Part shown: positions 10,851 through 62,930 of the stretch, piece by piece
Numbering within the stretch: position 1 is the first letter of the stretch
How the letters are laid out: each line of letters opens with the position of its first letter
Source: Chthonomonas sp. UBA2362
GTDB taxonomy: Bacteria; Armatimonadota; Fimbriimonadia; Fimbriimonadales; Fimbriimonadaceae
Length of the DNA stretch: 64,000 nt
NCBI GenBank assembly: GCA_002344135.1
Contig: DDTO01000008.1
Span: forward strand, 88,566 to 152,565
Reading direction: 5' to 3'
Made by a program: the position numbers and the translations under genes
Notes under the pieces: model-generated
Told to the model about the DNA's origin: nothing
Databases searched by the model: none
What the model saw: the letters and a program-made list of their open reading frames with translations, nothing else

Positions 10851-11088
10851 TTGCCTTACTAGTATATCTTTGGCTACCAGTTTTCCCCACCGGGGCAGCC
10901 CATCCTTCGCACACTTTTTCCACAGGCCGCCTCTCGTAGCGTCGTTTCAGCCTGCTCGAACGTCTGGACGATTGCCAACGGATGGTGGGCAGAGGGCTAG
11001 GAGGGCCATTTTGCAATCTGAGCGGCGCGGCGTATCACGCGCGCGGCTTCAGGTGATACACTTGGGTCCTCAACTTGGAGGAGATGTA

Positions 11089-11778
11089 ATGAGGTTCCTA
11101 GGAATTGCAGCGTTGGCGGCGATGCTTCTCGCCTTGGTCGGATGCGGCTCGGATCATGGCGGCGGCCCGACCAATATGCGGCTAAAGCTCGTGAGTCTGG
11201 TCCCCGATGCGGGGCTGAGCCAGCTTTATTGGAAGGGCGCCCCGGTTTCGCCCAGACCGCTCGAGTATCGGGAGGACAGCGGCTATCAGTCCCGAAATTC
11301 GGGTCGAGGAAACGCCGACCTGTACGTGATCGATCTCGGAACCGTCGCCAGCGAGTTCCTTTGGCTGACCACGGACGGCGAGTACAGCTTGTTCGGCGTC
11401 GGGAGTGTCGCCCTCGGCAACACCGAATTGGTGCGAGTGATCGACGACACCCGACCCGCGGTGGACAAGTACAAAGTCCGAATCTTCCACGGTACGTCTG
11501 CGGCTCCTCCGGTAGACGTGTACATTACGGACGTGAACACGGACCTAGAGGACGTCGCACCGAACTTCCCCTCGATGTCGTTCCGCATGGCGAGCGGCTA
11601 TGTCGAGCGTGGGCCCGGAACCTATCGTGTCCGCTTCACTGCGCCCGGGACGAAGACCGTCTTGCTCGACACTGGAGTGCTCGAGGGGCTGGCCGGTCAA
11701 GTGTTCACGGTTGCGGTCTCCGGCGAACCATCGGTCGGCGCGCCGCTGAGGACTCTGCTGCTGACCGACCGCCGCTAA
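11089..11778 (+). CDS. DUF4397-like lipoprotein
   Basis: ATG 11089 gives MRFLGIAALAAMLLALVGCGSD (lipobox LVGC). VRIFHGTSAAPPVDVYITD and YRVRFTAPGTKTVLLD match the repeated DUF4397 pattern. The long upstream extension in the ORF track (10660) overlaps sbcD and I rejected it. Confidence 0.65.
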   Translation: MRFLGIAALAAMLLALVGCGSDHGGGPTNMRLKLVSLVPDAGLSQLYWKGAPVSPRPLEYREDSGYQSRNSGRGNADLYVIDLGTVASEFLWLTTDGEYSLFGVGSVALGNTELVRVIDDTRPAVDKYKVRIFHGTSAAPPVDVYITDVNTDLEDVAPNFPSMSFRMASGYVERGPGTYRVRFTAPGTKTVLLDTGVLEGLAGQVFTVAVSGEPSVGAPLRTLLLTDRR

Positions 11779-11904
11779 GGTCGGCAGGATTGCTCGAATA
11801 GGCACCAGATTGCGCCGATCAGCGCGACGGTTCACCGTGCCGGGTACGATGCCGCGTCAGGCGGTTCGAACAATCCGATCGATTTGCTCGCCTAACCCCG
11901 GACC

Positions 11905-19167: not shown

Positions 19168-19318
19168 CGGCCCATTGTGGCACCTGGAGTGCCGATTCGA
19201 CGGCGCCCACTTGGAGGCCGCGGCTTGGCCGTGCTTTGGTTTGCCGGCTCGGCGCGTTCCTGGAGTACGCGGGCGTGGCCGCGCTGTGGCTTGCAGCCGC
19301 TCGTTGCGCTGTTCGTGC

Positions 19319-19478
19319 CGCGGGAAGACGGCCCTGGACCGTGGCCACGAGCCCATCCCCCGGCTACCTCCCGCCGGTAGCCCGCGGATGGCTTGTGCGG
19401 CGGGAAGACGGCCCTGTACCGGGGGCACGAGCCATCCCCCGGCTGGCTTGCCAATCGGAACGGGCAGACCGCGGATGA
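19319..19478 (+). repeat. two tandem copies (80-bp spacing) of a hairpin-forming intergenic repeat family (locus A)
   Basis: CGGGAAGACGGCCCTG..CC.....CACGAGCCATCCCCCGGCT... starts at 19321 and 19401. It shares its head and hairpin arms with the units at 24104, 24187 and (inverted) 62850-62930. Confidence 0.8.
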
Positions 19479-24091: not shown

Positions 24092-24100
24092 AAAGGCCCG

Positions 24101-24300
24101 CCACGGGAAGACGGCCCCGATCCGGGGGCACGACCCATCCCCCGGCTACCTCCACATCGCCGGTAGCCCGCGGATGGTTTCTGCCGCGGGAAGACGGCCC
24201 CGATCCGGGGGCACGACCCATCCTCCGGCTACCTCCACATCGCCGGTAGCCCGCGGATGGTTTTTGCCGCGGGAAGACGGTTCTCACCCGGGGACATGCG
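24101..24300 (+). repeat. tandem 83-bp hairpin repeat, 2 full copies + 1 truncated head (locus B)
   Basis: CGGGAAG heads at 24104, 24187 and 24270 (exact 83-bp spacing). Copies 1 and 2 differ at 3 positions by my reading. Arms CCATCCCCCGGCTACC (24135-24150) and GGTAGCCCGCGGATGG (24162-24177) pair 14/16. Confidence 0.9.
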
Positions 24301-24519: not shown

Positions 24520-24601
24520 TCCCCGGGGTCGTAACCGGGGGCACGACCCATCCCCCGGCTACCTCCCACACGCAGGTACCCCGCGCATCGGCCGTGCCCC
24601 C
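24520..24601 (+). repeat. divergent solo copy of the same repeat family, flanked by a 10-bp inverted repeat
   Basis: CCGGGGGCACGACCCATCCCCCGGCTACCTCC is shared with locus B. It is bracketed by CGGGGGCACG ... CGTGCCCCCG. Confidence 0.65.
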
Positions 24602-24659
24602 GAAAGACGGCGGCAAACCAGCCCTCCCCCCGCCGATCGCGTCTTTCGGCGCTCGCGCG

Positions 24660-24689
24660 GTAACAATCCAGGCCAGATCCTCGTATGAT
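24660..24689 (+). promoter_or_regulatory. candidate sigma70-type promoter for the CPPC protein gene
   Basis: GTAACA (24660-24665), 18-nt spacer, TATGAT (24684-24689), then CAGGAGG (24718-24724) 7 nt before ATG 24732. Read by eye only. Confidence 0.25.
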
Positions 24690-24731
24690 CTCAAAGGCTG
24701 ACTCGACAACAATGTTTCAGGAGGTTCGACA

Positions 24732-25277
24732 ATGATTCAAAAAGCACTCTTCGCCGCTCTGACGGTTTCCGCGATCGCCCTTCCCGCGTTCGCCGCCAAC
24801 TCCGGGCTCGCCGTCGGCGAGGCCGTTACCCCGTTCCACCCGGCACACATTACCGGCCCCAACAAGGGCACGACCGCATGCCCGCCCTGCACCTACGGCA
24901 ACCGCCCGCAGGTCCAGGTTTGGGTGAACGGTGATTCGCTCGAGAACGTGGCCAAGATCGCTGGCGTCCTGAACAAGACCGCCGCTTCGAACAAGGAGTT
25001 CAAAGGGTTCGTGATCTTCCTCACCAGCGACAAGCCCGCGACCGAAAAGGCCATCGTCGAAGCCAACAAGAAGCTCGGCTACGACGCGATCGCGATGGCG
25101 ACTCTCGCCCCCGGTGACTCGGCGGTGAAGAACTACAAGGTCAACGTCGCTTCCGAAGTCAAGAACACGGTCTTCGTGTACAAGGACAAGAAGGTCACCG
25201 CTAAGTTCGTGAACCTCGAGGCCAACGAGAAGGGCCTCGGCCAGCTGAACGAGGCGATCGCCAAGATCACCAACTAA
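24732..25277 (+). CDS. secreted thioredoxin-fold-like protein with CPPC motif (hypothetical)
   Basis: Strong SD. Signal peptide MIQKALFAALTVSAIALPAFA. TACPPCTYGN is a CxxC redox-type motif. Strongly biased codons (AAG, AAC, GTC, ATC), followed by a clean terminator. Confidence 0.7.
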   Translation: MIQKALFAALTVSAIALPAFAANSGLAVGEAVTPFHPAHITGPNKGTTACPPCTYGNRPQVQVWVNGDSLENVAKIAGVLNKTAASNKEFKGFVIFLTSDKPATEKAIVEANKKLGYDAIAMATLAPGDSAVKNYKVNVASEVKNTVFVYKDKKVTAKFVNLEANEKGLGQLNEAIAKITN

Positions 25278-25289
25278 GGTTCGGCCCAC

Positions 25290-25330
25290 GACCCGCCCCT
25301 TCTTTTGCGAGGGGCGGGTCGCCCGTTTTT
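25290..25330 (+). terminator. intrinsic terminator
   Basis: ACCCGCCCCT-loop-AGGGGCGGGT stem followed by GCCCGTTTTT. Confidence 0.7.
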
Positions 25331-25374
25331 AGGGGTCGCCGCATACGACGCCGGTCTTGCATCTCGTGAGAGGC

Positions 25375-25770
25375 ATGACTGGCCTACTTCGGCTCTTTCT
25401 CGCGCTCGTCGCCATTGTCGCTGTCTGGGGATGCCGCTCGCTCGGAGTTTCGGGTGAGTACCAAGCCTATCATCCCGATGGGAGCATCCGGACACTCCAC
25501 GTTCGAGGAGACACGTTGAGGCTCGAGATGTCGACACCGGCTTACGGAACGGTGCACATCGCTACCGCGCGCTTTCGTCGAGAAGGTGATCAGTTGATCT
25601 TCGTCGAAGACCTTGAAACCGGCGTAGGATCGGACATGCTCATCAAGGCCGACGACGCCGAAGCCACCATCACGGTCGAGGACGGGGGCCGGGTCATCGC
25701 CTTTCGAGGCAGCGTGGACCAGGGTTGGTTCGGTCGCCAAGACATGGAGATCGTCTTTCGCAAGAAGTGA
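25375..25770 (+). CDS. hypothetical lipoprotein
   Basis: MTGLLRLFLALVAIVAVWGCRS (lipobox VWGC). The start is uncertain (TTG 25357, GTG 25366 or ATG 25375). The stop abuts the stop of the convergent phosphoesterase gene with no spacer. Confidence 0.5.
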   Translation: MTGLLRLFLALVAIVAVWGCRSLGVSGEYQAYHPDGSIRTLHVRGDTLRLEMSTPAYGTVHIATARFRREGDQLIFVEDLETGVGSDMLIKADDAEATITVEDGGRVIAFRGSVDQGWFGRQDMEIVFRKK

Positions 25771-26586
25771 CTATCTGGTGAGTTGTAACACCGCCACTTC
25801 CGGCCGGCAGAACAGGCGCGAAGGCGGCCCGGTCGTCCCGACCCCTCGCGTGACGAAAAGCGGTGTCGAGGCCTCCGGATAGTAGCCTCGGACATAGCGC
25901 CGCCCATTCTCGGTGGACATCGGCGCCCAACCCCACGGGGCGAGGAATTGGCCGCCGTGGCTGTGCCCGGCAAGCATCAGCGAAGCGCCTGGCGGAAGGG
26001 TGGCGACGAGGTCGGGCTCGTGCCAAACGACGATGGACGGTTCGCTGGCGTCGGCGGGAATGTCCCCGAACGCCGCTGAGGGGTCGGCATAACCGGCGTT
26101 GAACGAGTCGATCCCGACCCAGCGGATGCCCTGGCTCAGCCAGGAGGAGTTGCGAAGAAGCCGAATGTTCAGCGCGCCGCAGATCGCGCCGAGGAGATCG
26201 GCATCGCCGTACCCGAGGTAGTCATGGTTGCCGGGAACCGCGACCACGCGTCCCTCCATGAGCAGGAGCGGCTCGAGCACGTCGCCCACCATCCTCGGCG
26301 AGGACTCGGTCCAGTGGCCGACGAAATCTCCGGCGATCACGACGACGTCCGGCTCGGCATCGAGCGCCGCCGCGATCGCTCGTTCGGCCAGTTCGGCGCT
26401 GTGCCGATCGCGGAGGTGGAAGTCGGCGAGCAGGGCTACCGTGAATCCGTTCAGCCGCTCGGGCCAGCGCGGTAACCTGATCCTGTATCGCTCGAGGGTG
26501 AGCCGCTTGGATTCTACGAGGGCTCCGTAGGCGAGCACGCCGAGGCCGGCCGCCCCGAGGCCGAAGAGGCAGCGCCCCAGTTTCAT
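25771..26586 (-). CDS. metallophosphoesterase
   Basis: From ATG 26586: MKLGRCLFGLGAAGLGVLAYG (TM), LADFHL, AGDFVGH, PGNHDY, GHSHGGQ. 4-nt overlap with the queD stop. Confidence 0.8.
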   Translation of the reverse strand: MKLGRCLFGLGAAGLGVLAYGALVESKRLTLERYRIRLPRWPERLNGFTVALLADFHLRDRHSAELAERAIAAALDAEPDVVVIAGDFVGHWTESSPRMVGDVLEPLLLMEGRVVAVPGNHDYLGYGDADLLGAICGALNIRLLRNSSWLSQGIRWVGIDSFNAGYADPSAAFGDIPADASEPSIVVWHEPDLVATLPPGASLMLAGHSHGGQFLAPWGWAPMSTENGRRYVRGYYPEASTPLFVTRGVGTTGPPSRLFCRPEVAVLQLTR

Positions 26587-27038
26587 GCCTCCACTTCCGC
26601 CCACGAGTTGGGGGTCTCCCACACCCGGACCCGATCGAGTCGCACCCGGCCAGGGGGGATGCGGTAGCCATCGCCCTCGAACCCCTCGCGGAGGACGCAC
26701 GAAACGAAATCGAAGAGATCATGGGCGATGACCTCCGTCGTCGGGTCGCGATTCTCGAAGACGACGACTCCATCCGGGTGAGTCTCGCGCAGAGCGGGCA
26801 AAAGGGGGTCTTCCGAGTTCGCCGCCATCGCATGATCGTACCGCTGGACATAATCTCCCACGGCAAGCTTGAGGGCCTTGAAGTCGCAGACCATGTCGTT
26901 CTCGTCGAGGGACTCGGCGCTGACGACGACCTCGATCCGCCGGGTATGCCCGTGCGGGTAGCGGCACGCCTCGGGGTGCTTGCTGAGCATGTGCCCCGAC
27001 TCGACCGTGAACGTTCGGCAGACGCGAAACCTCGCCAC
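26583..27038 (-). CDS. queD: 6-carboxy-5,6,7,8-tetrahydropterin synthase family (QueD/PTPS)
   Basis: MARFRVCRTFTVESGHML...CRYPHGHTRRIEVVV...DFKALK. These are the PTPS/QueD His triad and Cys context. Confidence 0.8.
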   Translation of the reverse strand: MARFRVCRTFTVESGHMLSKHPEACRYPHGHTRRIEVVVSAESLDENDMVCDFKALKLAVGDYVQRYDHAMAANSEDPLLPALRETHPDGVVVFENRDPTTEVIAHDLFDFVSCVLREGFEGDGYRIPPGRVRLDRVRVWETPNSWAEVEA

Positions 27039-27059
27039 GACCGAGATTGTACTGCCGGG

Positions 27060-27926
27060 CTACCCGACGAGGCTCAAGCGACCCATCGGAGGGGCAGCCA
27101 TGTGGCCGGCGAGCTCGGCAGCCGAGGAAAGCGGCTCGGCGCCCAGGGCGAGCAGGGCCCTTGCGGCCGGGCAGCCGGAATCGGGCCGCACGAGGACGCG
27201 CGCCCGTCGGCGCAATGCTCCGACCGCGCCATGCCACGTCCCCCCCTCGCGGAAACGAGCGCGAACCACGACGGTAGCGTCGGCAAGCGAGTAGATGACG
27301 GCGTTGCGCTCCATCGCCCGCCGAGGCGAGAAAGGCTCATCCCAGGCACAAAGCGACAAGGCGCAAGCCCCACCGAGGCGCGTGGCAAAGCGCAGCCCCG
27401 ACGGGAAGATCTCCGCGATCCCCCCGCCGATCGCGGCGACCGAACGCGCCGCCGCACGGTCGGCCCCGATCGCACCGCCGCTCACGAGGGCGAAACCGGC
27501 AGCCGCCGCCGACTCCGCCACCGCCGCGGCAAAGCGACGATCCTCTGCGGAGAGCCGTCGCGAGCCGACCACCCCGACGAACGGCCCGCAAGGCATCTCT
27601 CCACGACAATTGAGCGCGGCCGGCCCCCCGGCCCCCATCGCCAGCCAGCGAGCGGGATAGGCGGGAGAGGCCGCCGTGAGGACCCGTCCGCGCGAGAACT
27701 CTGCCTCCGCCCAGGCCACCCGTCCCGGCGTCTCGAGGACCAGAGCCTCGGCCCAGAGACCTGCCTGCCGCAGAATCGACGCGGCCTCCCCGAGGCGGGC
27801 GTCGCGCAGACGCAGCAGCGAGAGCACCGCAGGCCACCGGCGCGGGAGCGAGCCGACCGGGGGACCGCCTGCCAGATAGAGCGCGGCCAGCGCGATCTCG
27901 CCGACCGGCCACTGAACACTTACCAT
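27060..27926 (-). CDS. dprA: DprA-like DNA-processing protein
   Basis: VGVVGSRRLSAEDRRFA...ALVSGGAIGADRAAARS...FSPRRAMERNAVIYSLADATVVVRA follows the DprA Rossmann-domain pattern (VGSR, SG.A.G.D, F..RNR.I..L). The start is either ATG 27926 or ATG 27947. Confidence 0.65.
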   Translation of the reverse strand: MVSVQWPVGEIALAALYLAGGPPVGSLPRRWPAVLSLLRLRDARLGEAASILRQAGLWAEALVLETPGRVAWAEAEFSRGRVLTAASPAYPARWLAMGAGGPAALNCRGEMPCGPFVGVVGSRRLSAEDRRFAAAVAESAAAAGFALVSGGAIGADRAAARSVAAIGGGIAEIFPSGLRFATRLGGACALSLCAWDEPFSPRRAMERNAVIYSLADATVVVRARFREGGTWHGAVGALRRRARVLVRPDSGCPAARALLALGAEPLSSAAELAGHMAAPPMGRLSLVG

Positions 27927-27933
27927 GCACTGT

Positions 27934-27939
27934 ATTATA
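27934..27939 (-). promoter_or_regulatory. perfect TATAAT box upstream of dprA-like gene
   Basis: The minus strand reads ...GACATGTATAATACAGTGC-ATG(27926), with the -10 hexamer only 7 nt from the ATG. If used, it would give a leaderless or near-leaderless mRNA. No convincing -35. Confidence 0.3.
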
Positions 27940-28014
27940 CATGTCATCTACTCGCCAGGGGCTCTGCAGAAGTGCGCCCGGACCATACACAATGGCGATC
28001 CCGGATCAAGGAAA

Positions 28015-31000
28015 ATGCTCAAACACCCCGCCCTGACCAAGGCCCGGATCAAGCAGTTCATCGATCACGAGCTGGCCGAACACATCATCGGCGAGCGTGT
28101 TCCCCTCGACATCGAGTTCTGCCCGAAGGCCCATCCCACCGAGCAAGAGGCTCGCCAGCAAGGTCCCTGGAAGCCTGCGAAGATCGGATTTCGCTACGGT
28201 CCGGCCTACCGGGAAGTCTGGTTTCGGCTGACCGGCCGCGTCCCCGCCCGCTGGAAAGGCCTCAAGGTCGGGATCGTCGCCGAACTTGGTGGCGAGCGAA
28301 CCGCCTGGATCAAGAACGTGCCCTTCCACGGGATCGACGAGCCGCATGCCGTGATGCCCTTCCTCAAGGAGGCCGGAGGCAACGAGAAGGTCGATCTGGC
28401 GATCCAAGCCTACACCCGCAATCCGCAGTGTCGCGTCCATCGACGCGAGCTTCCCCGTGAGGAACTCGTCGAGGAGGTCAAGGAAGCCAGCCTCGTCGTC
28501 GTCGACGGCGCCCTCAAGGCCCTCTACTACGACTGCGCGTTCGCCTACGATCTGATGGAAGCCACCGGCGAGGCCGACCCGGCGCACGCGACGATCCTCC
28601 GCGCGCTCAACGATTGCTGTAACCTCTTTGCCACCGGGCGGCCCGATGCCATCGAGCGCAGCCGCAAGGTTATTCGAGACGCCCTCGGCAGCCTCAACGG
28701 CGAGCTCAAGCACTCCTTGACCGCGGTCGGGCACGCTCACCTCGATACCGCCTGGCTGTGGCCGCTGCGGATCACGCGCCTCAAGATGGCGCACACCACG
28801 GCCACCCAGCTCCAGCTCATCGAGCGGTACCCGGAGTACGTCTTCGTCCACTCCCAGGCCAGCCAATACGAGTGGCTCGAAAAGCAGTACCCCACCCTCC
28901 TCCGTCGTGTGAAGCAAGCCATCGCCAAGGGACAGTGGGAAGTCGTCGGCTCGATGTGGGTCGAGGCGGACTGCAACCTCACCGGCGGCGAGTCCCTCGT
29001 GCGGCAATTCCTCTATGGAAGGCGCTACTTCCAAAAGCACCTCGGCGTCACGACCGAGGACATGTGGCTGCCCGACGTGTTCGGCTACTCCGCAGCGCTC
29101 CCCCAGATCCTCTACAAGTTCGGCATCCGGTACTTCCTCACCCAAAAGATCAGCTGGAACCAGTTCAACAAGTTCCCCCACCACACCTTCTGGTGGCAGG
29201 GCATCGACGGCACCAAAGTCTGGACCCACTTCCCGCCCGCGGACACGTACTGCGGCTCCTCCGAGCCCAAGGAGATTCTCCGCGCCGTCGAGAACTATCG
29301 CGACCACGCCCGGAGCGACGCCTCGCTCTACGTCTTCGGCTACGGGGACGGCGGAGGCGGCCCGACCGAGAAGCACATCGAGTTCCTCAAGCGGGCTCGG
29401 CTCGCGCCGAACCTCCCCGACGTCGTCCTCGGGCGCAAGGCCGTCGACTTCTTCCGCGAGGCCCGCGCCAAGAGCCGAGACCTCCTTACCTGGGTCGGCG
29501 AGCTGTACTTCGAGTTGCACCGGGGCACCTATACGAGCCAGGCCGCCAACAAGAAGGCCAATCGAGAGACCGAGTTCCTCATGCGCGATGCCGAATGGCT
29601 CTCCTGCTTCCGCGACGACTTCCCCGGCGCCTATCCCGCCGACTCGCTCGAGGAGGCATGGAAGCTGGTCCTCCTCAACCAGTTCCACGACATCATCCCC
29701 GGGTCGTCGGTGAACGAGGTTTATCGCGACAGCGACGCCGATTACGACCGCGTCCGCCAGATGGGGGGCGAGATCGTGCGCGAAGGCCTCCACCGCATCG
29801 CCCGCGTCCTCGACAGCGAGGGCATGAAGCGCCCGGTCGCCCTCTTCCAGAACGCCACGATCCCCGGACAAGGCGAGATCGCCTGGAACGAAGACGAGGC
29901 GCCCTCCTCACTCGTCTGCGGCGAGACCAACGTCGCCGTCCAGGTGGTCGAAGATGGCTTCGGAAGGCGCCTCGTCTTCGAGGTCCCCCAGGAAGCCCTC
30001 GGCGCGGTGGCCGTCGCAGACCTGAGCGACCAGCCGCCCTCGACCCGAAAGCGCCTCAAGGCCGGCAACCGCCGCATCGAGAACGGCGACTTCTCCGTCC
30101 GGTTCGACCCACACGGCAACATCTCGAGCATCACCAGCCTCGACGACCGGCCCGTGGAGTTCATCGAGCCCGGCAAGCTCGCCAACGTCTTCCAGATCTT
30201 CGACGACAAGCCGCTCTTCTGGAGCGCGTGGGACCTCGACGTCTTCGCATACGAGACCAAGAAGGATCTCGTCAAGTCCGAGTCCTTCGAGATCGTCGAG
30301 AGGGGCCCCGTCCGCGTCGCCGCCGAGATCGTGAAGACCTTCGGCGCCAGCACCATCCGCCAGCGCATCAGCCTCGGCCCGACACCCGGCATACGGTTCG
30401 ACACCGAGATCGACTGGCACGAGGAGGACAAGCTACTCAAGGTCGCCTTCCCCGTCAACGTCAACTCACCCAAGGCAACCTACGAGATCCAGTTCGGCAA
30501 CGTCGAGCGACCCACCCACATGAACACGTCCTGGGACATGGCACGCTTCGAGGTCTGCGCACAGAAGTGGGCCGACCTCAGCGAAGGCGGGCACGGCGTC
30601 GCACTCCTCAACGACGGCAAGTACGGACACGACATTCACGGCAACGTCATGCGCCTCTCCCTCCTCCGAGCCCCGAAAGCGCCCGATCCACACTGCGACA
30701 TGGGCATACACCGCTTCACCTACGTCCTCTTGCCCCACTTCGACCAGATACAGCACGCCGACGTCGTCGCCGCGGCCTACGCCGTTAACGCACCGCTCCG
30801 ATGGGCCTTCATCGAGCCCTCGCCCGGGCAGGAAGGAGAGTTGCCCCGCTTCGTCGGAGTCGAGAACAGGAACCTCGTCGTCGAGGCCGTTAAGAAAGCA
30901 GAGGACTCGAGCAACCTCGTCGTCCGGCTCTACGAGTGTCATAACACCCGCGGCACCGCCGAGCTGACTTGCGCCCGCCCCGTCCGCGCCGCCTGGCTCG

Positions 31001-31104
31001 CCGACCTCAACGAGCGCCCCATCAAAGACCTCGAGATCATCGACGGCCTCGTCGTCTTCGACTTCAAGCCCTTCGAGATCGTCACCATCCTCTTGCAGGT
31101 GTAG
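28015..31104 (+). CDS. glycoside hydrolase family 38 alpha-mannosidase
   Basis: ATG 28015 after AAGGAAA. VGHAHLDTAWLWP, WLPDVFGYS, YGDGGGGP, ELHRGTYTSQ, NQFHDIIPGSS. These are GH38 catalytic-domain signatures. 1029 aa. Confidence 0.9.
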   Translation: MLKHPALTKARIKQFIDHELAEHIIGERVPLDIEFCPKAHPTEQEARQQGPWKPAKIGFRYGPAYREVWFRLTGRVPARWKGLKVGIVAELGGERTAWIKNVPFHGIDEPHAVMPFLKEAGGNEKVDLAIQAYTRNPQCRVHRRELPREELVEEVKEASLVVVDGALKALYYDCAFAYDLMEATGEADPAHATILRALNDCCNLFATGRPDAIERSRKVIRDALGSLNGELKHSLTAVGHAHLDTAWLWPLRITRLKMAHTTATQLQLIERYPEYVFVHSQASQYEWLEKQYPTLLRRVKQAIAKGQWEVVGSMWVEADCNLTGGESLVRQFLYGRRYFQKHLGVTTEDMWLPDVFGYSAALPQILYKFGIRYFLTQKISWNQFNKFPHHTFWWQGIDGTKVWTHFPPADTYCGSSEPKEILRAVENYRDHARSDASLYVFGYGDGGGGPTEKHIEFLKRARLAPNLPDVVLGRKAVDFFREARAKSRDLLTWVGELYFELHRGTYTSQAANKKANRETEFLMRDAEWLSCFRDDFPGAYPADSLEEAWKLVLLNQFHDIIPGSSVNEVYRDSDADYDRVRQMGGEIVREGLHRIARVLDSEGMKRPVALFQNATIPGQGEIAWNEDEAPSSLVCGETNVAVQVVEDGFGRRLVFEVPQEALGAVAVADLSDQPPSTRKRLKAGNRRIENGDFSVRFDPHGNISSITSLDDRPVEFIEPGKLANVFQIFDDKPLFWSAWDLDVFAYETKKDLVKSESFEIVERGPVRVAAEIVKTFGASTIRQRISLGPTPGIRFDTEIDWHEEDKLLKVAFPVNVNSPKATYEIQFGNVERPTHMNTSWDMARFEVCAQKWADLSEGGHGVALLNDGKYGHDIHGNVMRLSLLRAPKAPDPHCDMGIHRFTYVLLPHFDQIQHADVVAAAYAVNAPLRWAFIEPSPGQEGELPRFVGVENRNLVVEAVKKAEDSSNLVVRLYECHNTRGTAELTCARPVRAAWLADLNERPIKDLEIIDGLVVFDFKPFEIVTILLQV

Positions 31105-31189
31105 CTCGAGCGCCGGCGACAGGCCACCGGGCGCCCTCCCCCCGGCAGCACGGTCTCTCCCTGCGGCCGCGGGATCTCTCCCTGCGGTC

Positions 31190-31399
31190 GAGATGACAGA
31201 GAGAAGCGGCGAGATGACAGAGAGAAGCGGCGAGATGACAGAGAGAAGCGGCGAGATGACAGGGAGGAAGGGCGAGAGGACAGTGAGGAGGGGAGAGGTG
31301 ACAGGGAGGACGGGCGAGGGAACAGGGAGGACGGGCGAGGGAACAGGGAGGTCTGGGGAGGAAACAGGGAGGAGGGGCGAGGAGGCAAAGAAGGAGGTC
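31190..31399. repeat. tandem array 1: 10 units of 21 bp (GAGATGACAGAGAGAAGCGGC, 3 perfect then degenerating)
   Basis: Units start at 31190, 31211, 31232 (identical), then 31253, 31274, 31295, 31316, 31337, 31358, 31379 with progressive divergence and no indels. Confidence 0.95.
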
Positions 31400-31480
31400 G
31401 TGAACGACACGACTCCTCCACCGGTCACTTGCAAACGGATAACGAACCCAACGACGCCTCTGCCGCTCACCTAGAAAGCA

Positions 31481-31963
31481 CCAACGCGCACAATGACTAC
31501 CCCAAAGGATACCGGGACTGCCCCATCGCACGCCCAGACGCCTCCATCGCACGCCAGGCCAGCTCCATCGCCCGCTAGGACTGCACCATCGCACGCTGGG
31601 AGTCCTACATAGCACGCCGGTCCTGCTCCATCGCACGCTGTGACTGCGCCTGCGGTCACTGGGAGTCCGGCATACAACGCCAGGACTGCTCCATCGAACG
31701 CTCAGAGTCCGACATAGAACGCCGGGACGGTTCCAGCATACGCTTGGAGTGCGCAATCGCACGCTGGTACTACGCCCGCGCACACCTCGACCGCGTCAAT
31801 GCACGCTGAGACTGCGTCATCGTACACTGTGCCTGCAGCATCGCTTGCTCCGTCTACTACCAAGCACGACTTTATCGCACCGAATCAGCAGGTATCCGCG
31901 TCATCGCCCGCATCAGCAACGACATTGGACACAAAATCGCCAACAATGCGCACCAAATCGGCT
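31481..31963. repeat. tandem array 2: about 23 units of 21 bp with core CCATCGCACGC
   Basis: Core recurs at 31523, 31544, 31565, 31586, 31607, 31628 ... 31943 with exact 21-bp spacing. The flanking units (31481, 31502 and those beyond 31860) are degenerate. No indels break the phase. Confidence 0.9.
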
Positions 31964-32368
31964 AGGTTGCGAAATGGCGTTAAGGCATCGCAGACCAGGT
32001 AAAGCAAAGAAGCATAGACTAGCTGTCTATTAGCGTGCGTTGGGAATGAGCTGGCGATCGTGGGGCCAGCTCTTGGACCCGATAGGGCAAGACCTTGGTT
32101 CGATGCGGCGGCATTGGTGCCGTTTGCGACGCCCAGAGCGTTCTTGGTCATGGCAGCTGCAAGCGACGTCTGTTAAGCGGCGATCGTCGTAGCAGGAGCG
32201 GTAGCTAGTGGAGCAGAAGGGGTGTGCCATGGGCTGCAGTGGGCGAGCGCGGAGGGACGAAATGGATGCGCTGAAACAAGAGCCGTAGTCGCCAAGCCTC
32301 TCGGAGCGAGCGGTGGGGCGGTCCAACGAGACGCTGACACTCCGCCTGGCAGAGGTGGCGCCTCGGGA

Positions 32369-33142
32369 TTAGGCGCGGCGCATGTCCACGGTCTCTTTGG
32401 AGAAGCCGAGGCGCTCGTAGAAGGCGTGCTGGTACGTGAAGAGGAAGACGTTGGCGCCTGGGGCCTCTTCCCGGATCATGTCGAGGCCTTCCTGCATCAT
32501 GGCGGACCCGATCCGGCGGGCTTGCCACTCGGGGACGACGGCGACGTCCCAGAAGCTGAACCATCCGGGTGCGTCGCGGACGATGCGGAGGATGCCGATG
32601 GTCTCGCCGTCCGGTGAGCAGGCAACGACGCCGCCCCACGTGGTCTCGAGGAGGCCTGGGGTGTCTTTTGTGTACCCGAAGGCGCGGCCGCCGACGTCGA
32701 CGTACTCTGCGGCGGAGGGGAGACGGCGCTCGATGACGACGCCCTCGGGAAATGGCTGGGACCGCGGGGGACTGCCGGAGGGTGGCCCGGCAAAGCGGAG
32801 GTGGTAGCCGTCGAGATCCTCCACGACGTACTCTCGCGCGCCCCAGGGCATGTCTGCGATGTCGGCGACGATGCGCGCGCCGCTGGCGCGGTGGCGGGCG
32901 TAGAGGGCGTCGGCGTCGTCGATCTTGATCCAATGCTGATGTCCGCGCACGGCCTTGGCCAGTTCGGGCTGGAGGTTGAACATGATGGTCACGCCGCCCA
33001 GCGCTACGGACCCGAAGGACGGCGGTTCGCCCCAGGTCCAGGACGATTCGAAGCCGAGAACGTCCTTGTAGTGGCCGATGGTGGCTTCGATGTCGGACGA
33101 AGCGAAGATGGCGGTGGAACTGATCACGCCGGGCGGCCTCAT
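32369..33142 (-). CDS. VOC (glyoxalase/bleomycin-resistance fold) - GNAT acetyltransferase fusion protein
   Basis: The N-terminal half (HYKDVLGFESSW...MPWGAREYVVEDLDGYHLRF) looks VOC-like. The C-terminal half (VAVVPEWQARRIGSAMMQEGL...AFYERLGF) has GNAT motif A. Confidence 0.75.
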   Translation of the reverse strand: MRPPGVISSTAIFASSDIEATIGHYKDVLGFESSWTWGEPPSFGSVALGGVTIMFNLQPELAKAVRGHQHWIKIDDADALYARHRASGARIVADIADMPWGAREYVVEDLDGYHLRFAGPPSGSPPRSQPFPEGVVIERRLPSAAEYVDVGGRAFGYTKDTPGLLETTWGGVVACSPDGETIGILRIVRDAPGWFSFWDVAVVPEWQARRIGSAMMQEGLDMIREEAPGANVFLFTYQHAFYERLGFSKETVDMRRA

Positions 33143-33311
33143 GAGGCCCTCAGGCTACCCGAGCGTGTGGAGTGCGCCGGCTCGATGGCGTCCTCCCCCT
33201 CCTTTCGCCTGCGAGAGGAGGGGGCCGGGGGGGGTGGAGAGTGACGGCCCCTCGCTGGGCCGGGGCGCGGGCCCTGGCCGCGGAAGGTACGATCTTGGCG
33301 CGAGGGGAGCC

Positions 33312-34142
33312 ATGCGTTGGAAAGGCAGACGAGGCAGCGATAACGTCGAGGATCGGCGCGGGATGGGCGGCGGCCTGCTTGTGGGAGGCGGTGGCCTGGG
33401 GCTGCTGATCGCGGTGGTGTATCTGCTGATGGGCGGGGACCCGGCGAGCCTCTCCGGCGGCACCTCGACGCCGGGCAAGCCGTACCAAGAAAGCGCGCAA
33501 GAGGCCGAACGGCGGGAGTTCGCGTCGGTTGTCCTGGCGGACACGGAGACGGTGTGGAAGGGACTGTTTCAGCGGATGGGCCGGACGTATCGGGAGCCGA
33601 AGCTGGTGCTGTTTACGGACTCGATCCAGGGCGCTTGCGGGTTCGCCAGCGCGGCTGTGGGCCCGTTCTACTGTCCGGAGGACTCGAAGCTTTACATCGA
33701 CCTGGGCTTCTTCGACGTTCTGGCCGACCGCCTGGGCGCGAAGGGCGACTTCGCCCGCGCCTACGTGGTCGCGCACGAGGTGGGGCACCACATCCAGAAC
33801 CTTCTGGGCACGATGGACAAGGTGCAGGGCGAGCGCCGGCGCCTGTCGGAGGCCGAGTACAACCGCCTGTCGGTGCGGCTCGAGCTTCAGGCCGACTTCT
33901 ATGCCGGTGTGTGGGCCCACCACGCCCGCTCGATGGCCTCCATCGACGAGGAGGACATCCGCGAGGCGATAGAAGCCGCCTCCGCCATCGGCGACGACAC
34001 GCTGCAGAGCCGTTCAGGCGGCAACGTCGTCCCGGACTCGTTTACCCACGGCACGAGCGAGCAGCGAGCGCGCTGGTTCCTCCGGGGCTGGGAGACCGGC
34101 GACCCCGCGCAGGGCGATACGTTCCGGGCGGGCCGGCTGTAG
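33312..34142 (+). CDS. ypfJ: YpfJ-family neutral zinc metallopeptidase
   Basis: ATG 33312: MRWKGRRGSDNVEDRRG (characteristic N-terminus), a TM segment, FYCPEDSKLYIDLGFF, and HEVGHHIQN (HExxH). Confidence 0.85.
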   Translation: MRWKGRRGSDNVEDRRGMGGGLLVGGGGLGLLIAVVYLLMGGDPASLSGGTSTPGKPYQESAQEAERREFASVVLADTETVWKGLFQRMGRTYREPKLVLFTDSIQGACGFASAAVGPFYCPEDSKLYIDLGFFDVLADRLGAKGDFARAYVVAHEVGHHIQNLLGTMDKVQGERRRLSEAEYNRLSVRLELQADFYAGVWAHHARSMASIDEEDIREAIEAASAIGDDTLQSRSGGNVVPDSFTHGTSEQRARWFLRGWETGDPAQGDTFRAGRL

Positions 34143-41411: not shown

Positions 41412-41431
41412 CGGTTCCTGGTGAACAAGAG

Positions 41432-41462
41432 AAACGCGCCCCCCTCGGGGGCGCGTTCTTTT
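41432..41462. terminator. bidirectional intrinsic terminator between convergent genes
   Basis: GAACGCGCCCCC-CTC-GGGGGCGCGTTC, flanked by a T-run on the + strand (TTCTTTTGG) and by TTTCTCTTGTT on the - strand. Confidence 0.75.
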
Positions 41463-41477
41463 GGTCTAGCAGAAGTG

Positions 41478-42569
41478 TTAGTCGCCTTCCAGTCCGAAGT
41501 TATTGCTCAGGATCGCGAAGTCTCCGATATCGACCTCGTCATCGCCCAGCAGGTCGGCATTGGCGTTCCAATTCGGGTCACCGGGGATGGCGCCGAAAGC
41601 GGAAGATAGCAGAGCGTAGTCTCCGATGGAGATCTCATTGTCGCCATCGCAGTCGCCATTGACGAGGCTGAAACTGAGGTCTCCGCCGAATTCGCCGAAC
41701 GTCACCTGTTGGCATTGCCGGAGCCAGTGGGGCGCCTTCACGCAGACGGTGTATTCGCCCTCCACGCAGGCCCGTATGGGGATCGCTGACTCGCTGCTCA
41801 GGTTGATGGTGGACTCGCGGATGACGTTTCCTCCGCCATCTTGGATCGTGACCGTGATCGGTACGGCGGTCTCGTCGCCAAGATAGTCCTGTAACTCTCC
41901 GTCGACCATCAAGTACGTCCCGAACGGGTGCGTGCTGATCGCGAAGTAACCCGCCAAAAAGTCGGCCGAAGCTTGATCGGGTTCTCGCATCATGACGAAG
42001 TCTATCGTCGTGCCAGGCACGACTTGTACGGTCAGTGCCGACGTTCCGCCTGAGAAGTCTTCGAATCTGAGCGGAAACTGCGACGAGAAGGTGTTGGGCG
42101 CAATGAACGAGGCCTGGCTTACAGTGAGGCCGTTGACCTGGATGAAGCTGTTCATCCAGCGTCCGATATTGCGCGGCATCCAGGTCTCGCCACAGAGGTA
42201 CACCGTGCCGTTGATCGGACTCGTCCAGCGTAAGCAAGAGTATTCGGTGGCGGTTCGCTCTGTCTCCGCCCCATGCATGAAGACCGTTCCTCGGGGAAGG
42301 TCCATGTTGTAGACTCGGCTGATCGTAGCCCTTGCCCACATCGGAACATGGTCGTTATATGGCAACGGCCGGGCGGCCCATGCCGCCTGGTTGGTCCCGG
42401 GATCCCAGGGATTCCAGTTGGTGGTGAACAGGGAACTCGGAGCTTGAAGAAGGCTCCAAGCACCGAACGGATTTGTTGCATCACTCCAGTCCGCAGACGC
42501 ATTCCAGGTGGTCGCGCCCGCAGAAACGGCGATGCTCATGGCGAGCAGTAGTGTGGTCTGACGCATCAT
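41478..42569 (-). CDS. secreted protein of unknown function with dockerin-type C-terminal cassette
   Basis: GGAG-N5-ATG at 42569. Signal peptide MMRQTTLLLAMSIAVSAGA. C-terminus ELQDYLG...VKAPHWL...NGDCDGDNEISIGDYALLSSAFG...DLLGDDEVDIGDFAILSNNFGLEGD-stop. Confidence 0.75.
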   Translation of the reverse strand: MMRQTTLLLAMSIAVSAGATTWNASADWSDATNPFGAWSLLQAPSSLFTTNWNPWDPGTNQAAWAARPLPYNDHVPMWARATISRVYNMDLPRGTVFMHGAETERTATEYSCLRWTSPINGTVYLCGETWMPRNIGRWMNSFIQVNGLTVSQASFIAPNTFSSQFPLRFEDFSGGTSALTVQVVPGTTIDFVMMREPDQASADFLAGYFAISTHPFGTYLMVDGELQDYLGDETAVPITVTIQDGGGNVIRESTINLSSESAIPIRACVEGEYTVCVKAPHWLRQCQQVTFGEFGGDLSFSLVNGDCDGDNEISIGDYALLSSAFGAIPGDPNWNANADLLGDDEVDIGDFAILSNNFGLEGD

Positions 42570-42712
42570 TGTTTCTCCAGTAGAAGGCATTGGTATTCTA
42601 GCGGGTGTTGACCTGATTCCCACAGCAGAGGGCAATACCTGGCAAATTCAACGGCCAAACAGCGCATGCTCGGACGGCTTGGCGTCGCCTGACGTAGAAT
42701 CTGGCAAGCTCC

Positions 42713-62824: not shown

Positions 62825-62930
62825 GCGGGCCGCCTTCCCGCGGCAAGAGCCATCCGCGGGCTACCGCGATAGGGTTGGTAGCCGGGGGATGGTTCGTGCC
62901 CCCGGTGGCCGACTTCCGGCCTTCCCGCGG
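62825..62930 (-). repeat. one full + one truncated copy of the hairpin repeat family, inverted orientation (locus C)
   Basis: The reverse complement of 62850-62930 reads CCGCGGGAAGGCCGG...CCGGGGGCACGAACCATCCCCCGGCTACC...GGTAGCCCGCGGATGG. A second head, CCGCGGGAAGG, lies at 62834-62843. Confidence 0.8.

Follow-up and report, generated by a model that had tools for sequence, protein, structure and literature searches.

A composite array of 21-bp repeats in the spacer between convergent GH38 and VOC-GNAT genes of Chthonomonas sp. UBA2362

Minisatellite or variable-number tandem repeat (VNTR) loci consist of tandem units of roughly 10-100 bp, and are used in bacteria for multiple-locus VNTR analysis (MLVA) typing. 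Here, we describe a repeat-filled intergenic spacer of the uncultured bacterium Chthonomonas sp. UBA2362 (Armatimonadota, Fimbriimonadaceae), located in a 64-kb stretch of contig DDTO01000008.1 that we call the window; all coordinates are positions in this window, and its allele is the reference sequence. The spacer, or gap, covers 31105-32368 (1264 bp) and is flanked by two convergent genes, both according to Pfam and to public gene calls: a plus-strand GH38 gene (Glyco_hydro_38N/mid/C), which ends with the TAG at 31102-31104, and a minus-strand Glyoxalase/VOC-GNAT fusion gene, which ends at 32369 with a TAA stop. As the original prediction, made from the sequence alone, had proposed, it is the longest gene-less stretch of the window, because the other apparent gaps turned out to contain called genes (41412-42712 and 27039-27924) or a lipoprotein open reading frame (ORF; 10851-11904). 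On balance, we consider that the gap is probably a lineage-specific, non-coding composite minisatellite, which fills the spacer between the convergent genes at a break in gene order, was made by slippage and unequal recombination, and evolves approximately neutrally.

Repeat anatomy of the spacer

Nearly the whole gap has a 21-bp period, arranged in three blocks of which one is inverted, as found with Tandem Repeats Finder (TRF), motif counts, autocorrelation and a position weight matrix (PWM). The lag-21 autocorrelation amounts to 0.78, 0.61 and 0.40 in the three parts of the gap, which contains the following features:

31105..31147, plus strand: GH38 3' flank before the repeats, with a weak GC-rich stem at 31110-31135.
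31148..31189, plus strand: two 21-bp units with TCTCTCCCTGCGG, found as a single copy in the ~88% lineage (see below).
31190..31400, plus strand: array 1, ~10 units of 21 bp, three of them identical (GAGATGACAGAGAGAAGCGGC) and the others GAGGnnACAGGGAGGAnGGGC variants (~6 diverged).
31393..31419, minus strand: terminator-like hairpin, GGAGGAGUCGUG-loop-CACGACCUCC and then UUCUUU, with one stem pair broken in the second haplotype.
31495..~31915, plus strand: array 2, ~17-20 units of 21 bp in one register, with consensus GACTGCTCCATCGCACGCTGG.
31916..32029, no strand: centre between the two array-2 arms, with the lowest GC and a sign change of the GC skew, overlapping the highest inter-haplotype divergence.
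32030..32323, minus strand: array 2', ~14 strongly decayed, inverted array-2-like units in one continuous register, recognised with the PWM of array 2.
32322..32368, minus strand: stable hairpin directly after the VOC-GNAT stop codon, the same in both haplotypes.

The two arrays with a 21-bp period had been recognised in the original prediction, and they were recovered by TRF, by exact-motif counts with shuffles and by repeat extension. For array 1, which in the wide sense includes the two TCTCTCCCTGCGG units and spans 31148-31400, TRF gives a period of 21 with 9.2 copies at 31189-31381 and 2.5 related units at 31136-31187, and the exact unit occurs three times, against 0.01 occurrences expected by chance (motif count with shuffles). 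The core of the TCTCTCCCTGCGG units is the reverse complement of the CAGGGAGAGA core of array 1. This array is 84% purine on the plus strand (G 52%, C 11%), about 9 standard deviations off the window mean, and contains the only long G-quadruplex-type run of the 64-kb window (31304-31358). Its first units differ between haplotypes. In array 2, TRF detects periods of 21, 42 and 63 over 31512-31744, the latter two reflecting a 42/63-bp higher-order structure, and the core motif has seven matches for 0.15 expected (motif count with shuffles). The mean pairwise identity among 16 units of this array (31516-31851) is ~62%, with no indels.

The remaining part, 31964-32368, had been described as a lower-GC unique tail. 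The low GC (0.53-0.58, in a window of 62.9% GC whose genes have a GC at third codon positions of ~0.85-0.9) is real but limited to ~31800-32200, whereas the uniqueness does not hold, since the tail is 21-bp periodic and made of inverted array-2-like units. Over 31852-32368 the lag-21 autocorrelation is 0.40, compared with 0.26 +/- 0.02 in shuffles (z = 7.1), and the best lags (21, 84, 126, 63 and 42) are all multiples of 21, whereas coding controls show all multiples of three. The PWM of array 2 gives a best-phase mean score of -4.9 in array 2', compared with -19.3 +/- 1.45 in shuffles. The hairpin at 32322..32368 is probably the VOC-GNAT terminator; the diverged haplotype block described below ends at this hairpin, where some short-read contigs also break.

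The spacer in related lineages

The 20 kb around the gap are 100% identical in four public records (four long contigs), namely a UBA-type metagenome-assembled genome (MAG; GCA_002345135.1), an ENA bioreactor-sludge assembly and two JGI metagenomes. The most informative relative is a sister lineage of ~88% identity (L225/L226; GH38 93.6% identical at the amino acid level), which aligns to the GH38 3' flank without indels, the homology extending to 31169. It then has a single TCTCTCCCTCCGGTCGAGACGACAGCGAAACGGGGA-GAGGGCACAGGCGAAGAAGCC, that is, one inverted-core unit and ~2 array-1 proto-units. With its single TCTCTCCCTCCGGTCGAGACGACAG..., this lineage thus has 1 + ~2 units where the window has 2 + ~10, which indicates that array 1 is a recent amplification of the GH38 3' flank. 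The rest of the ~88% spacer cannot be aligned any more, but its 21-bp periodicity persists (z = 6.6), and array-2-like units, in register, are found at its end.

In the next species, of ~82.6% identity (L210-L219; GH38 92.5% identical at the amino acid level), homology stops exactly at base 31104. Its spacer 3' of GH38 contains copies of an unrelated 83-bp repeat family and no 21-bp arrays, and the gene that follows encodes a prepilin-type N_methyl (pilin-like) protein, not VOC-GNAT. On the other side, a relative with an 83%-identical VOC-GNAT has unrelated sequence directly after the VOC-GNAT stop, and in one at 80% there is an ordinary 233-bp spacer with a hairpin. The nearest GTDB relatives by GH38 protein are Fimbriimonadaceae/Armatimonadota MAGs with at most 66% identity; among 21 Armatimonadota relatives the DNA 3' of GH38 varies by genome, with no 21-bp arrays and no VOC-GNAT. 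As both GH38 and VOC-GNAT have different neighbours in relatives, gene order breaks at the gap. When the gap was compared by BLASTN and TBLASTX with 80 GTDB relatives and with the remainder of the window, only low-complexity noise was returned. The original prediction had named an unrelated spacer in relatives as an observation that would speak against a gene at this locus, and had raised the question of a variable unit number; the comparison of the orthologous locus gave both, with none of the units being present in the ~82.6% species.

From these comparisons the following history may be proposed. A rearrangement would have brought the two convergent genes together, with the minisatellite filling the spacer between their terminators, and the 21-bp units would have grown, and would still turn over, by replication slippage and unequal recombination. 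Array 1 expanded not long ago out of a short stretch of GH38 3' flank, as the ~88% lineage shows, whereas array 2 would be older, and the inverted array-2-like block, now almost decayed, older still. The present sequence would evolve at about the neutral rate and encode neither protein nor structured RNA. The locus would then be a clean natural example of a bacterial intergenic spacer being built and replaced, in which a minisatellite is born from the 3' flank of a gene and older arrays decay in place, and the next species has another repeat family at the same position.

This other family is a dispersed intergenic repeat of ~83 bp (consensus GCCGCGGGAAGACGGCCCCGATCCGGGGGCACGACCCATCCCCCGGCTACC...), with hairpin potential and no Rfam match, found as tandem and inverted copies in several spacers. 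Around five copies fill the spacer 3' of GH38 in the ~82.6% species, where the window has the 21-bp arrays, and the family occupies three other intergenic sites in the window. Its copies are found at:

Window: 19317-19477, 24100-24263, 24535-24588 and 62828-62920.
Contigs of the ~82.6% species: L212 3725-4420, L210 7103-7607 and L215 7103-7705.

We also noted several features of the flanking genes. A Zn_peptidase (PF04228) gene at 33078-34142 sits between a methyltransferase gene and VOC-GNAT in the window, and it is missing in an 83-87% relative (L086), where the methyltransferase is directly followed by VOC-GNAT. The start of GH38 in most public gene calls is 28015 (1029 aa) and not 27925 (1059 aa); the longer ORF overlaps the start of the divergent DprA gene. 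The MAG contig DDVD01000036.1 (L003 15260-16212) is rearranged near its end relative to window 27458-27906 and to other assemblies; the region concerned, which comprises the DprA gene and the DprA-GH38 spacer, aligns in separate pieces with unaligned stretches between them, probably as an assembly artefact at the short-repeat region 27502-27671.

Haplotype divergence and tests of function

Contigs of a second haplotype (L220, L221 and L222, from strains of 99.5-99.7% identity) were reached through variant proteins in 90% clusters. Between the two haplotypes the gap has 95 substitutions and no indel over 1,164 comparable bp. L222 is 99.8% identical to the window in the flanking genes over 2.6 kb (5 mismatches), and differs from it at 77 of 1014 gap positions (7.6%), between 31355 and 32321, again without an indel. 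L220 is identical to the window over 24537-29867, then shows 16 differences in the last 1.24 kb of GH38, followed by 18 differing sites out of 150 (12%) in the gap part 31105-31254. Divergence peaks at 14% over 31855-32054. The diverged block thus extends from 29868 to 32321 (~2.45 kb), covering the GH38 3' end and the gap, in genomes that are otherwise ~99.8-100% identical, and it is a recombination tract or an old allele. The haplotypes recombine, since L221 has the same variants as L222 at 31357-31486 and the window allele to the right, with a switch near 31490. In mixed samples, contigs break at 32322, the very position at which the alleles start to diverge, and contigs of the 99.5-99.7% strains end inside array 1, at 31254 and 31355; array 2 is equal in length in L221 and L222.

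The two parts of the block evolve differently. In the GH38 segment, 14 of the 16 changes are at third codon positions, 13 being synonymous and 2 non-synonymous, and this segment is under purifying selection. Divergence in the gap (7.6-12%) is to be compared with 3.4% of third codon positions in the adjacent GH38 segment, so that the gap evolves at least as fast as silent sites. Transitions and transversions are in a similar proportion in the gap (36:41) and in the GH38 part (7:9). A diversity-generating retroelement (DGR)-like process or local hypermutation was considered as the cause of the 7.6% divergence and discarded, as the diverged block extends over 1.24 kb of GH38, where the mutation spectrum is the same. 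Among the 77 differing sites (31355-32368), 21 are A in the window and G in the other allele, with 7 being the reverse, and the GC of the same region is 0.608 in the window allele and 0.626 in the other, which would suggest a strand-biased G-to-A decay (C-to-T on the minus strand) of the window allele if G was the ancestral state.

The original prediction had described one minus-strand frame, from ATG 32151, as open across both arrays and interrupted solely by TGA 31885, TGA 31702 and TAG 31471, giving ACDG... and SPLLSVI... heptads, and a second ORF on the same strand (31082..31783) as uninterrupted and rich in Arg, Trp and Cys. All of this is correct. However, a 7-codon unit in 63% GC DNA is stop-free in any given frame with a probability of ~0.8, and most frames of the gap are nearly open; as short GC-rich units rarely contain stops, open frames in the gap are no evidence of coding. 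The same applies to a GC of 0.8 in one codon phase of array 2, which we rejected as a coding signal because a consensus of only seven codons has at least 6/7 GC in some phase with a probability of ~0.5, so that the value is not significant. In-frame stretches also remain open for 157 codons past the GH38 TAG and 113 codons past the VOC-GNAT TAA (31105-31575 and 32030-32368), the VOC-GNAT extension in both haplotypes and the GH38 one checked in the second haplotype where this is sampled; they probably result from the T/A-poor composition, and the chance of having both is ~1 in 9. Long, nearly open heptad-like frames are therefore to be expected by chance over GC-rich tandem repeats, which calls for caution in annotation, as ORFs of 88 and 93 aa from the gap have already been called as genes in public records.

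Tests that do not depend on open frames give a consistent result. A codon log-odds score per codon, trained on 16 genes of the window, is 0.48 +/- 0.16 for genes in frame (5th percentile 0.23) and -0.54 +/- 0.45 off frame, compared with -0.9 to +0.22 over the frames and parts of the gap, mostly negative and none gene-like; the second haplotype and the ~88% sister-lineage spacer likewise have no gene-like scores. The substitutions between haplotypes show no codon periodicity (29/25/23 by position modulo 3), and their synonymous to non-synonymous ratio is ~1:3 in all six frames (range ~1:2 to 1:5), which is near random, compared with 13:2 in the GH38 control. In the other allele, the minus frame from ATG 32151 has lost TGA 31885 and TGA 31702 but acquired a stop at codon 45, the 233-aa ORF is interrupted, and the GH38-frame extension gains a stop. 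The core of array 2 (unit positions 9-18) takes 13 of the 24 substitutions in this array, where 11.4 are expected, and is thus not spared. Together, the absence of codon-level selection, the allele-specific stops and the unspared core exclude a currently functional protein and argue against an array for sequence-specific binding. Hence, of the third alternative raised in the original prediction, a non-coding array with protein-binding phasing, the first element is supported, whereas the binding role finds no support in sequence conservation.

A live gene read with recoding, that is, with stop readthrough or reassignment across the arrays, is extremely improbable in the light of these data, and we reject it. 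It would account for there being only three stops in the minus frame from ATG 32151 and for the open frames past both flanking stops (157 and 113 codons), but both flanking genes terminate in the normal way, with TAG and TAA respectively, the two alleles have their stops at different positions, neither codon usage nor the substitution pattern (no period 3, synonymous to non-synonymous ~1:3) is gene-like, and the ORF is an orphan. Indeed, a HMMER search of 1.84 billion representative proteins with the 88-aa gap ORF retrieved no homologue but itself; it forms a singleton cluster and is the sole gap ORF on record in cluster look-ups. The 226-aa conceptual product of the minus frame had no match in a word-index search, which also missed the ORF itself and is thus of limited sensitivity. 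No Pfam match was obtained in any gap frame tried, and no intact orthologous ORF was found in the relatives compared or in either allele.

The spacer may alternatively hold the remains of one or more heptad-repeat genes, with array 2 and its inverted copy being old convergent paralogous ORFs, or the whole a single gene in the minus frame. Their unit frame would be D-C-S-I-A-R-x, the 21-bp period would have been left behind by repeats of seven codons, and death would have preceded the haplotype split. All blocks have a period divisible by three, and this frame is the best in three of five subregions and near the top in the other two, with codon scores of -0.20 in array 1, +0.22 between the arrays, 0.00 in array 2, and -0.08 and -0.19 in the tail. 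However, all these scores are below the gene range (5th percentile 0.23), and the agreement of the two arms on the best frame is not independent evidence, because the arms share ancestry. The inverted block is open for 98 codons in this frame in both haplotypes, and the stops of the minus frame from ATG 32151 are at different sites in each allele, so that the ancestor could have been open; on the other hand, open frames are expected for such units, and no frame is under purifying selection. The GC skew changes sign at the centre, as it would between two convergent genes, and a history of frame maintenance would explain the missing indels, but no homologue of the 88-aa ORF or of the 226-aa product and no Pfam match was found, and array 1 clearly arose from a non-coding flank. 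We therefore regard this explanation as rather unlikely, and judge the pseudogenised repeat protein of the original prediction in the same way, as it is unsupported by any intact ORF, homologue or Pfam match and array 1 derives from the GH38 3' flank.

A structured RNA is not indicated either. Gathering and permissive Rfam scans of the gap gave sub-threshold chance matches only, and the folding of array 1, array 2, the tail and the whole inverted region is no better than that of dinucleotide shuffles (z -1.2 to +1.5), with both arrays folding less well than shuffles (z = +1.4). In a two-allele alifold scan of 36 windows the lowest column-shuffle z was -2.7, reached in a single window, and compensatory pairs were almost absent. 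A promoter and terminator scan of the gap found no promoter and two weak terminator-like sites.

Other element classes were also considered. A CRISPR array is rejected because the units abut without spacers and no cas domains are found among the neighbouring genes, and a DGR target because all substitution types occur, 31 of the 77 sites are A in the window and there is no reverse transcriptase gene in the neighbourhood. A CsrB-like sponge, suggested by ACAGGGA motifs in array 1, was discarded given the lack of Rfam support, the missing GGA in the first three units and the restriction of the array to one lineage. Regarding the iteron or partition class, no rep or par gene is present among the called genes within +/-10 kb (Pfam content), the array-2 core is not kept between alleles, and the gap has no match in plasmid, phage and IMG/VR collections. 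A metagenome scan with the pattern CATMGMACGC-N11-CATMGMACGC gave at least 120 matches, mostly unrelated 21-bp repeats, the pattern being too permissive; this organism's own locus is not among the matches listed. Tandem arrays of 21 bp are frequent between genes in metagenome contigs from unrelated organisms, sometimes as two neighbouring arrays at one locus. Examples are:

L104, 592-886.
L116, 3572-3794.
L154, 5492-5859.
L110, 2-127 and 665-820.

The L104 and L116 units were considered as chimeras of array 1 and array 2, and rejected as such because they share only 10-11-mers, compared with 9 for chance matches, and belong to unrelated organisms; their resemblance to array 1 and the array-2 core is probably a coincidence.

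Several observations weigh against a neutral composite minisatellite. There are no indels in 95 substitutions between the haplotypes, whereas other non-coding DNA is more indel-rich: a rough control, other non-coding DNA compared between the window and the ~88% lineage, has 75 substitutions and up to 16 indel events, some of which lie in repeat-rich DNA that is hard to align. Furthermore, the decayed inverted block keeps one register over ~14 units, and the ~88% lineage has retained the 21-bp period in a spacer most of which can no longer be aligned. Taken together, the missing indels, the single register and the persistent period may point to a constraint on length or phase, which would not be expected of a purely neutral satellite; they could reflect a past coding history, a helical-phase or length constraint, or whole-unit turnover combined with a low indel rate. 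In addition, copy-number variation, the usual hallmark of VNTR loci, was observed here between lineages only, all short-read contigs breaking inside array 1.

These observations bring up a functional spacer constrained in phase, in which the 21-bp periodicity itself, corresponding to two helical turns, would be under selection. The array could serve to load a DNA-binding protein, nucleoid-associated or other, on a single helical face, or could form a bidirectional zone of Rho-dependent termination and insulation, with the G-quadruplex-prone purine tract of array 1 as an extra barrier. The zero indels relative to the indel-rich control, the register of the inverted block and the survival of the period in the ~88% lineage while its sequence turns over are all in favour of such a constraint. 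The composition also fits unstructured C-rich RNA entering from either direction: array 2 has C 38% and G 26% on the plus strand, array 1 would have C 52% and G 11% on the minus-strand RNA, the plus-strand GC skew over 32000-32400 is +0.2 to +0.26, so that minus-strand RNA there has more C than G, and both arrays fold below shuffles. The RNA is thus C-rich, G-poor and unstructured, like that of Rho-dependent terminators, in terms of composition only. In contrast, the repeat core is unprotected (13 of 24 changes), the ~82.6% species lacks the arrays and has other repeats 3' of GH38, and a conserved hairpin, the probable terminator of VOC-GNAT, already precedes the arrays. The spacing preference of Rho for YC sites is ~11-13 nt, not 21 nt, and the coding strands of this genome are generally C-rich, so that the skew may only record the direction of transcription. 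We consider a phase-constrained spacer possible but not likely. More specifically, selection could keep the 21-bp period and not the sequence, in which case units could be replaced without restriction provided that length and helical phase stay the same; this would explain the zero indels, the single register of the inverted arm and the survival of the period in a lineage that is no longer alignable, but it seems to us a doubtful proposition. If such a constraint were real, it would argue for repeat spacers between convergent genes having a role that depends on phase and is independent of sequence, testable in an abundant bioreactor organism.

For the composite minisatellite that we favour, the present-day effect would most likely be incidental, consisting in an unstructured spacer of ~1.2 kb. 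A transcript reaching it from either gene would become C-rich and G-poor, which would favour termination before the polymerases collide. The C-rich, G-poor RNA from both sides and its low structure fit a termination or insulation role, although they are in themselves no evidence for it.

Comparison with known repeat systems

The gap resembles the iteron origins of replicons such as R6K and RK2, and type II/III partition centromeres such as parC of R1 and tubC, in having units of ~20 bp, or ~two helical turns, in both orientations, with a lower-GC centre between two arms. It differs from them in having no rep or par gene within +/-10 kb, no plasmid or phage match, no conservation of the core between haplotypes, and a chromosomal context between convergent housekeeping-type genes. 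With heptad-repeat (coiled-coil-like) proteins it shares the period of seven codons, and the frame I-A-R-x-D-C-S would place I at heptad position a and the hypervariable codon at d; it differs from genes for such proteins in that both alleles and the sister lineage lack an intact ORF, codon usage is not gene-like, no purifying selection is seen and there is no homologue. Like rut sites of Rho-dependent terminators, it would give C-rich, G-poor and poorly structured RNA past the stop codons, from both entry directions, but it is made of regular 21-nt units instead of loosely spaced YC dinucleotides, and VOC-GNAT has its own hairpin; the likeness is one of composition only.

Bacterial intergenic minisatellites offer the closest comparison. 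The gap is unlike a typical VNTR locus in being large and composite, with ~58 unit-lengths filling the whole 1.26-kb spacer in three blocks of different age, one of them inverted, and in having a period that persists across lineages and no indels. In common with these loci, it consists of head-to-tail 21-bp units in an intergenic position, shows a lineage-specific amplification (from ~2 to ~12 units), three identical young units and 42/63-bp higher-order periods, diverges rapidly, and breaks short-read assemblies inside the array. Its repeats are far beyond chance, lie outside functional coding sequence and differ in unit number between lineages, as in minisatellites.

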